A stretch of DNA of 64,000 bases. Source: Escherichia coli (GTDB taxonomy: Bacteria; Pseudomonadota; Gammaproteobacteria; Enterobacterales; Enterobacteriaceae). The translations under genes and the position numbers were made by a program. The notes below the pieces were generated by a model. That model was not told the DNA's origin. It worked only from the letters and a program-made list of their open reading frames with translations, and made no database searches. This document shows, piece by piece, positions 8,032 through 8,826 of the stretch. The stretch is from the NCBI RefSeq assembly GCF_003790525.1, contig NZ_CP033635.1; one strand, given 5' to 3'. Each line of letters begins with the position of its first letter. Positions within the stretch are counted from its first letter, which is position 1.

Positions 8032-8826
8032 TCATAATAATTGCGGCGGCGCAAAGCGACGGTTGTTTAAGACGGGCAGTTGCGCGCGCACCTGACGCAC
8101 ACGTTCGGGCGTCACTTCCGCCATAATGAGTGCAGGCATTTCTGACGCTGCCGCAATGGTGACGCCAAAGGGATCTATAATCCGGCTTTGCCCGATATTT
8201 TTGTTCCCGCACTCCCCCGCCGCCACCATATAACAGGTGGTATCCAGCGCACGAGCGGCAAGCAACGTTGACCAGTGATGCTCTTTGAGCGGCCCACGAA
8301 CCCAGGCAGCAGGAAGTACCAGGATTTCAGCTCCCTGTAATGCCTGTGCCAGCGCCAGCTCTGGAAAGCGTAAGTCATAACAGGTCATCAGACCGACCTT
8401 CATCCCTTCCACCTCCAGTAACGGAGCTATTTCATTACCAGCATCAACATGGCGTGATTCCTGAATGGCAAATGCATCATAGAGATGAAGTTTGGCATAA
8501 CGGGCGACGATGTTTCCTGCCTGTAGCGCCACCAGCATATTCCATGCGCGCCCCGGCGTTGAAGGAACATGAATCGTCAGAATTGTCGTCATCATGTTAC
8601 GTTTACTTTCTCGACGTAAACGTCCGAGGAATTCGCCTTCCAGCAGCTGTGCTGATTTAACCGATAGATCTGCATCATGATCATCACGCGCCAACAATGC
8701 TTCCGGCAGGACAAACAGCGAAACGTCGTTTTCCGCCGCCTGCGCCATCAACGAGGCACAAATCTCAGCGTTCTTTTCCCACACAGATGTCACAGCAAAC
8801 TGTCCTGCGGCAACCAGCATTGCCAC
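8032..8826 (-). CDS. ybeM: Nitrilase/C-N hydrolase family protein YbeM, apparently intact here
   Basis: Single 264 aa ORF with Glu/Lys/Cys catalytic-triad context ([24 protein letters not shown]); the true start may be an internal Met. Confidence 0.8.

Follow-up and report, generated by a model that had tools for sequence, protein, structure and literature searches.

An intact Escherichia coli allele of ybeM, a gene that most likely encodes a deaminated glutathione amidase and is disrupted by a one-base deletion in K-12

We report that a 64,000-nucleotide stretch of Escherichia coli DNA from contig NZ_CP033635.1 (hereafter the window) carries an intact, wild-type allele of ybeM, which encodes a 262-residue protein of the Nit1 type that is most likely a deaminated glutathione amidase, and that K-12 has lost this gene through the deletion of a single base. 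We place the probability of this reading as a whole at about 0.88. Much of it was known already, including the RefSeq name of the gene, the flag of K-12 ybeM as a pseudogene in GenBank, RefSeq and the protein collection, and the characterised enzyme family. What we add is limited to the exact lesion (the loss of a G from codon 67), its frequency among complete genomes, which extends to wild isolates, and an independent disruption of the gene by an insertion sequence. The finding is unsurprising and of little consequence for discovery, and its use is as bookkeeping for those who work with this gene.

The ybeM frame and the K-12 lesion

The initial annotation had described ybeM as one intact open reading frame of 264 codons at 8032..8826, and both the listing of open reading frames and the sequence of the window contain that same frame on the minus strand, where it encodes 264 aa from a GTG. 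Two codons 3' of this GTG lies an ATG that is preceded, across a 6-nt spacer, by the Shine-Dalgarno-like sequence AGGAGGAG, and the GTG immediately adjoins that sequence with no spacer at all. In RefSeq, the identical gene of strains 2016C-3878 and 2D is annotated from the ATG, with a length of 789 bp (262 aa plus stop; WP_001305561.1, 'deaminated glutathione amidase'). Because the Shine-Dalgarno spacing and the RefSeq annotation both favour the ATG at 8820, we rejected the GTG at 8826 as the start. The true gene is most likely the 262-aa frame that begins at the ATG, and the codons GTG GCA ahead of it are probably not translated into protein (Table 1). The frame is not a chance open reading frame, since its product matches a Pfam family and a search of 5,426 complete E. 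coli genomes located the 971-bp ybeM region in 5,424 of them, in all but one of these with at least 95% identity.

Table 1. Coordinates of ybeM, its codons of interest and its neighbours in the window; residues are numbered from the ATG.
Feature	Position	Strand	Basis
ybeM CDS, 262 codons and TAA stop, ATG at 8820..8818	8032..8820	-	ORF and translation; RefSeq
Shine-Dalgarno-like AGGAGGAG, 6 nt 5' of the ATG	8827..8834	-	Sequence reading; putative function
Extra in-frame codons GTG GCA of the 264-codon ORF	8821..8826	-	Sequence; RefSeq start
Codons 33 and 37 (V33A, V37A), window equivalents	8722..8724, 8710..8712
Glu40 codon, LPE motif, catalytic Glu	8701..8703	-	Aligns with 'lpe' of 1EMS
Codon 67 (CGT, Arg)	8620..8622	-	Alignment A1, column 220; K-12 frame analysis; population counts
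Lys110 codon, YAKLHLYD motif, catalytic Lys	8491..8493	-	Aligns with 'ynklhlfd' of 1EMS
Glu121 codon, QES motif	8458..8460	-	Aligns with 'mESe' of 1EMS
Cys147 codon, TCYDLRFPE motif, catalytic nucleophile	8380..8382	-	Aligns with 'sicydvrfpe' of 1EMS and with yeast NIT2 (4H5U)
tatE, co-directional downstream neighbour, 128-bp gap	7700..7903	-	ORF; annotation of identical loci
crcB (fluoride efflux transporter), divergent upstream neighbour	8916..9299	+	ORF; annotation

The initial annotation had also described ybeM as a disrupted pseudogene in the K-12 reference, and had proposed an alignment to MG1655 as a means of locating the frameshift. The description was accurate: the annotation of MG1655 (NC_000913.3) gives ybeM (b4581) as a 788-bp pseudogene, and in the assembly of a second K-12 strain, GM4792, PGAP marks it as 'frameshifted'. 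When the window was aligned with MG1655 and 2016C-3878, the sole difference in length was one G that is absent from codon 67 of K-12, which reads GGAC-TTTACG where the window and 2016C-3878 read GGACGTTTACG (alignment A1, column 220). The window keeps this middle base of the codon (G on the minus strand, C at window position 8621) and its frame stays open, so that it does not carry the pseudogene allele of the K-12 type. Past the deletion, the K-12 frame encodes eight wrong residues and then stops, which results in a product of 75 aa. Its translation runs MLVAAG...EGEFLG, continues with LYGEKVNVT and meets two stops, and the remainder (...PPQLL) lies in another frame. The K-12 product retains Glu40 and is without Lys110 and Cys147, and it therefore cannot be an active amidase. 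A 187-aa fragment that starts from an internal Met-Met is entered in the protein collection under the name 'PUTATIVE PSEUDOGENE: Putative protein YbeM [Escherichia coli K-12]'. In other respects the MG1655 gene is the ortholog of the window gene in a syntenic locus, from which it differs by 15 substitutions over 789 nt once its frame is restored. The missing G and the truncated product are found in MG1655 and not in the window, and MG1655 furthermore carries V33A and V37A, two missense changes of its own that are absent from the wild deletion-bearing strain 26561.

We considered whether the K-12 frameshift is an artefact of sequencing or annotation in the reference, in which case K-12 and the window genome would not really differ. 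Old reference annotations do hold errors of this kind, and in the assembly UTME-9 every gene of the locus is frameshifted, which is plainly an artefact of assembly. For the same reason, we rejected the 'nitrilase-related carbon-nitrogen hydrolase' of UTME-9 as a second natural pseudogene. However, the K-12 deletion is shared by 860 complete genomes that were assembled independently, among them many re-sequencings of K-12 as well as wild isolates, PGAP annotates the gene as frameshifted, in wild strain 26561 among others, and the 187-aa fragment from the C-terminal part of the K-12 gene is catalogued as a putative pseudogene. The 860 genomes and the annotation of strain 26561 rule the artefact out, and we give it no weight.

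Allele frequencies and selection on ybeM

Allele counts were made with short queries centred on codon 67 in a collection of 5,426 complete E. coli genomes. An 80-mer from K-12 that contains the deletion was matched exactly in 859 genomes, and a 39-mer with the deletion, for which near-exact matches only were counted, was matched in 860 of the 5,426, which corresponds to 15.8% of complete genomes, or about one in six. The 81-mer with the G restored, which represents the major intact allele, was matched exactly in 3,534 genomes. The window's own 81-mer (codons 54-80), in which codon 69 is CGT and not the synonymous CGG, was matched exactly in 69 of the 5,424 genomes that have the gene. At least 84% of complete genomes are thus without the K-12 deletion, and the intact allele is the norm. 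An intact ybeM of 789 bp is annotated in REL606 (E. coli B), O157:H7, O111:H8, CFT073 and the river isolate AVS0225, and the gene is intact in the phylogroup-F-like strains that are identical to the window. As for copy number, some genomes have two copies of the ybeM region and two of the 5,426 are without it altogether. Two matches to the region lie on records classed as plasmids, one of which has the 39-mer with the K-12 deletion.

Carriers of the deletion include the K-12 derivatives MG1655, DH5alpha, C600, J53 and BW25113, and also isolates from patients, dog, cat, chicken, raw milk, wastewater, river water and a coffee plant. Strain 26561, which came from bovine mastitis in France, has the deletion and a ybeM annotated as 'frameshifted'. 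The presence of the deletion in wild isolates identifies it as a natural polymorphism of a lineage and not a laboratory mutation or reference error, and its frequency of 860 in 5,426 with such isolates among the carriers indicates that the lesion is older than laboratory domestication. In addition to the deletion, K-12 and 26561 have in common private synonymous variants in codons 98 and 99, which fits a probable single origin of the deletion once the B lineage had branched off. A disruption independent of the K-12 deletion was found in O166:H15 strain JNE21-003 (locus 781..3698), where ybeM is split by the IS21-like element ISEc62 (istA/istB). Because 16% of genomes have the frameshift and one strain has an insertion sequence in the gene, ybeM is evidently dispensable. 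In JNE21-003, PGAP still calls a ybeM remnant of 726 bp an intact 'deaminated glutathione amidase'.

These counts have practical implications for work on this gene. K-12 is atypical at ybeM and represents a natural null for deaminated glutathione amidase, and the Keio 'ybeM' knockout is the deletion of a pseudogene. For studies of glutathione damage repair in E. coli, we advise the use of a strain with an intact allele, such as the window genome, REL606 or another B strain of the BL21 type, O157:H7, or CFT073.

We also examined how the gene varies, using a set of eight alleles in which the two deletion alleles had been restored in silico. Among these alleles, 35 nucleotide sites are variable, and only six codons change an amino acid (A18V, D32E, V33A, V37A, G66D and H124R). 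For pairs of intact alleles that have synonymous differences, pN/pS ranges from 0.03 to 0.13. Variation that is mostly synonymous is the pattern of purifying selection, which indicates that ybeM has been maintained as a gene. MG1655 and 26561 differ within ybeM by two T>C changes only, both of them nonsynonymous (V33A and V37A) with 0 synonymous, which is the direction expected if constraint were relaxed after inactivation, and which, with such tiny numbers, is a small hint.

The initial annotation had suggested that this genome may carry the functional ancestral allele. That the intact allele is ancestral gains support from its collinearity with eukaryotic Nit1 proteins, from its wide presence and from its mostly synonymous variation, but the allele is not special to the present genome.

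Protein family, catalytic residues and predicted activity

The YbeM protein of the window belongs to the nitrilase superfamily. Its match to the Pfam family CN_hydrolase (PF00795) has an E-value of 4.3e-41 and a score of 141.4 bits against a gathering score of 23.2, and covers residues 5-247 of the 264-aa ORF and positions 2-255 of the 256 in the profile. The NCBIfam model for deaminated glutathione amidase (NF033621) is matched over positions 2-260 of 260 with 451.5 bits against a cut-off of 355. This curated model is of the 'exception' type and was built around E. coli YbeM itself, and a pass therefore demonstrates orthology to YbeM and not the substrate. All other NCBIfam models, including those for N-carbamoylputrescine amidase, nitrilase, YafV-type amidohydrolase, NAD synthase and Lnt, score far under their own cut-offs; the YafV-type model (NF007757) fails with 61.5 bits against 249. 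The exact 262-aa sequence also appears in a collection of 15 billion proteins, where at least 1000 contigs carry it and it is named 'deaminated glutathione amidase [Escherichia coli]'.

Compared with E. coli YbeM as named in RefSeq, nothing substantive differs. The protein is identical to WP_001305561.1, and the locus (lipA-tatE-ybeM-crcB-cspE-pagP), the length and the start codon are all equal; the window allele has a minor synonymous variant at codon 69, CGT. From WP_000959109.1, the protein of REL606, O157:H7 and O111:H8, it is one residue apart (H124R).

Among proteins of solved structure, the closest relatives are of the Nit1 type, to which mammalian Nit1 also belongs, with E-values of 1.7e-29 for the Nit domain of C. 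elegans NitFhit (1EMS) and 1.1e-26 for yeast NIT2 (4H5U). Omega-amidases score lower (mouse Nit2, 2W1V, 4.4e-22; yeast NIT3, 1F89, 6.4e-20), and by these similarities YbeM is nearer the Nit1 type than the Nit2 type. The alignment with 1EMS extends over the full CN-hydrolase domain (query 5-255, 1EMS 19-281), and homology to approximately 39 distinct solved sequences of the superfamily predicts an alpha-beta-beta-alpha sandwich fold. The preserved context of a Glu/Lys/Cys catalytic triad that had been noted from the sequence holds up in these alignments, in which the motifs of E40, K110 and C147 match 1EMS and 4H5U column for column. The QES motif contains Glu121, which we take to be the likely second active-site Glu of the nitrilase superfamily. 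The window protein is shorter than these eukaryotic relatives and is not fused to Fhit; it is also without the insertions of yeast NIT2 (4H5U, 4HG3), and the NIT2 alignment falls into two stretches. With the omega-amidases of the Nit2 type (2W1V, 1F89 and the YafV type) it shares a branch of the superfamily and the triad, but it differs from them in its lower similarity and in its failure to reach the YafV-type cut-off.

The predicted activity of YbeM is that of a deaminated glutathione amidase (EC 3.5.1.128). Nit1 enzymes are described as metabolite-repair amidases that hydrolyse deaminated glutathione (PMC9913352, citing Peracchi et al. 2017), and YbeM has been equated with NIT1 and YafV with NIT2 (PMC8788347). 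In the mechanism that we propose, transaminases would now and then turn the free amino group of glutathione into a keto group, which would yield a damaged product, and YbeM would cleave the amide bond of this deaminated glutathione to release 2-oxoglutarate and Cys-Gly. Within the active site, Cys147 would attack the amide carbonyl, yielding a thioester acyl-enzyme, with Glu40 as the general base and with Lys110 as the residue that stabilises the tetrahedral intermediate (oxyanion), and water would then free the acid. Peracchi and colleagues reportedly also assayed a bacterial homologue in their work of 2017, and the UniProt name of O157:H7 YbeM presumably rests on that assay. Full-text literature searches for ybeM together with glutathione turned up no publication that reports biochemistry of the E. 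coli enzyme. Database naming and the reported assay of a bacterial homologue are the grounds on which E. coli YbeM itself is predicted to have deaminated glutathione amidase activity.

It is unlikely that the frame encodes an active enzyme with some other substrate, for example an omega-amidase that acts on 2-oxoglutaramate and 2-oxosuccinamate or an amidase of other N-acyl or keto-acid amides. Such an assignment would draw on the notorious difficulty of assigning members of the nitrilase superfamily from sequence, on the match to omega-amidases of the Nit2 type (E 4e-22), and on the derivation of the function name from an 'exception' model specific to E. coli. Against it, similarity to the Nit1 type exceeds that to the Nit2 type, E. 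coli has a separate family of YafV-type amidohydrolases whose model YbeM fails (61.5 against 249 bits), and all curated sources name YbeM a deaminated glutathione amidase. We therefore favour deaminated glutathione as the substrate.

Genomic context, expression and nitrosative stress

The gene lies between crcB and tatE, as it does in MG1655, REL606, CFT073, O157:H7 and strain 2D, within the canonical core-genome order lipA, tatE, ybeM, crcB, cspE, pagP. Over its first 49.9 kb the window has 99.99% identity with E. coli strain 2D, and over its first 20 kb it matches SMS-3-5 and others with 100% identity. We take SMS-3-5 to be a member of phylogroup F. The 95-bp intergenic region between ybeM and crcB (8821..8915) must hold the promoters of both genes. 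A scan of 7600..9400 for promoters and terminators revealed no consensus sigma-70 promoter in this intergenic region, and terminator-like hairpins occurred at chance level only, one of them within the 3' end of the CDS. In an Rfam scan of the whole window, neither ybeM nor the crcB-ybeM intergenic region matched any RNA family, and no fluoride riboswitch was found upstream of crcB.

Published data support the expression of intact ybeM alleles in other strains. In CFT073, ybeM mRNA fell to 0.30-fold under conditions that generate NO, and an NsrR ChIP-seq peak lies inside the gene (PMC5320621). In UTI89, the cloned full-length ybeM ORF was harmless, and sub-fragments that were out of frame led to filamentation (PMC6206680). 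The allele in the window would probably be expressed as well.

The opposite view, in which the frame is intact in the window genome and yet silent or decaying, either because it is unexpressed or because a missense change such as His124 has inactivated it, seems to us very unlikely. What speaks for such decay is the dispensability of the gene (the frameshift in 860 genomes and the insertion sequence in another), the lack of a consensus promoter in the scanned region upstream of ybeM, and the fact that residue 124 of the window allele, three positions away from the putative second Glu, is not that of the commonest protein. However, the His124 of the window is common to CFT073 and AVS0225, with Arg in K-12, REL606 and O157, which points to an old polymorphism, and in the alignment with NitFhit the residue at position 124 is neither His nor Arg. 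Furthermore, most differences among intact alleles are synonymous (pN/pS 0.03-0.13), the exact protein of the window allele is present on at least 1000 contigs, and ybeM mRNA was measured and found to be regulated in CFT073, itself a carrier of H124 (PMC5320621). We accordingly retain the reading of a maintained and probably functional gene.

Within ybeM, on the minus strand, ATGATGCATTT (8470..8480; CDS nt 341-351) fits the 11-bp NsrR half-site at 10 of 11 positions, with AAGATGCATTT of the ytfE site as the reference. When the CFT073 ChIP-seq summit, 698961, is placed relative to the ybeM ATG of that strain at 698622, it falls at CDS nt ~340, within a few bases of the half-site (PMC5320621). 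The number of NsrR motifs in the window is not above chance, with 4 matches against 9.1 expected, and the motif alone is therefore no evidence, so that only its coincidence with the ChIP-seq summit is notable. A more speculative proposal, which we regard as quite unlikely, is that the recurrent loss of ybeM was selected in the K-12 or commensal lineage and was not neutral, and that the intact gene is tied to nitrosative stress through the NsrR half-site. If this were true, intact and broken ybeM alleles would differ in how cells handle glutathione damage under NO stress.

Several features elsewhere in the window were recorded as separate observations. The zinc-dependent alcohol dehydrogenase gene ybdR is absent at 23358..23633, as it is in strain 2D, and 276 bp remain there; REL606 has ybdR between uspG and yldA, in a segment of about 1.6 kb (8937..10547 of the REL606 locus). 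The window keeps citR (ybdO) and a complete ybdN at 27570..28979, a segment that REL606 has lost beside an IS1 insertion, and a second IS1 of REL606, between citC and dpiB, is absent here (14696..14927). A toxin-antitoxin locus of the hok/sok type is located at 57153..57452 on the minus strand, where Rfam identifies the sok antisense RNA (RF01794; 81.4 bits; 57297..57452) and where a 50-aa Hok-like peptide lies inside the ORF 57153..57419. The ES036 sRNA is matched at 54963..55004 on the plus strand. The Rfam scan also recovered expected elements, namely a cspA-type thermoregulator 5' UTR over cspE (9305..9753, minus strand), the rnk leader (22732..22840, plus strand) and the sRNA STnc70 (26603..26696, minus strand).
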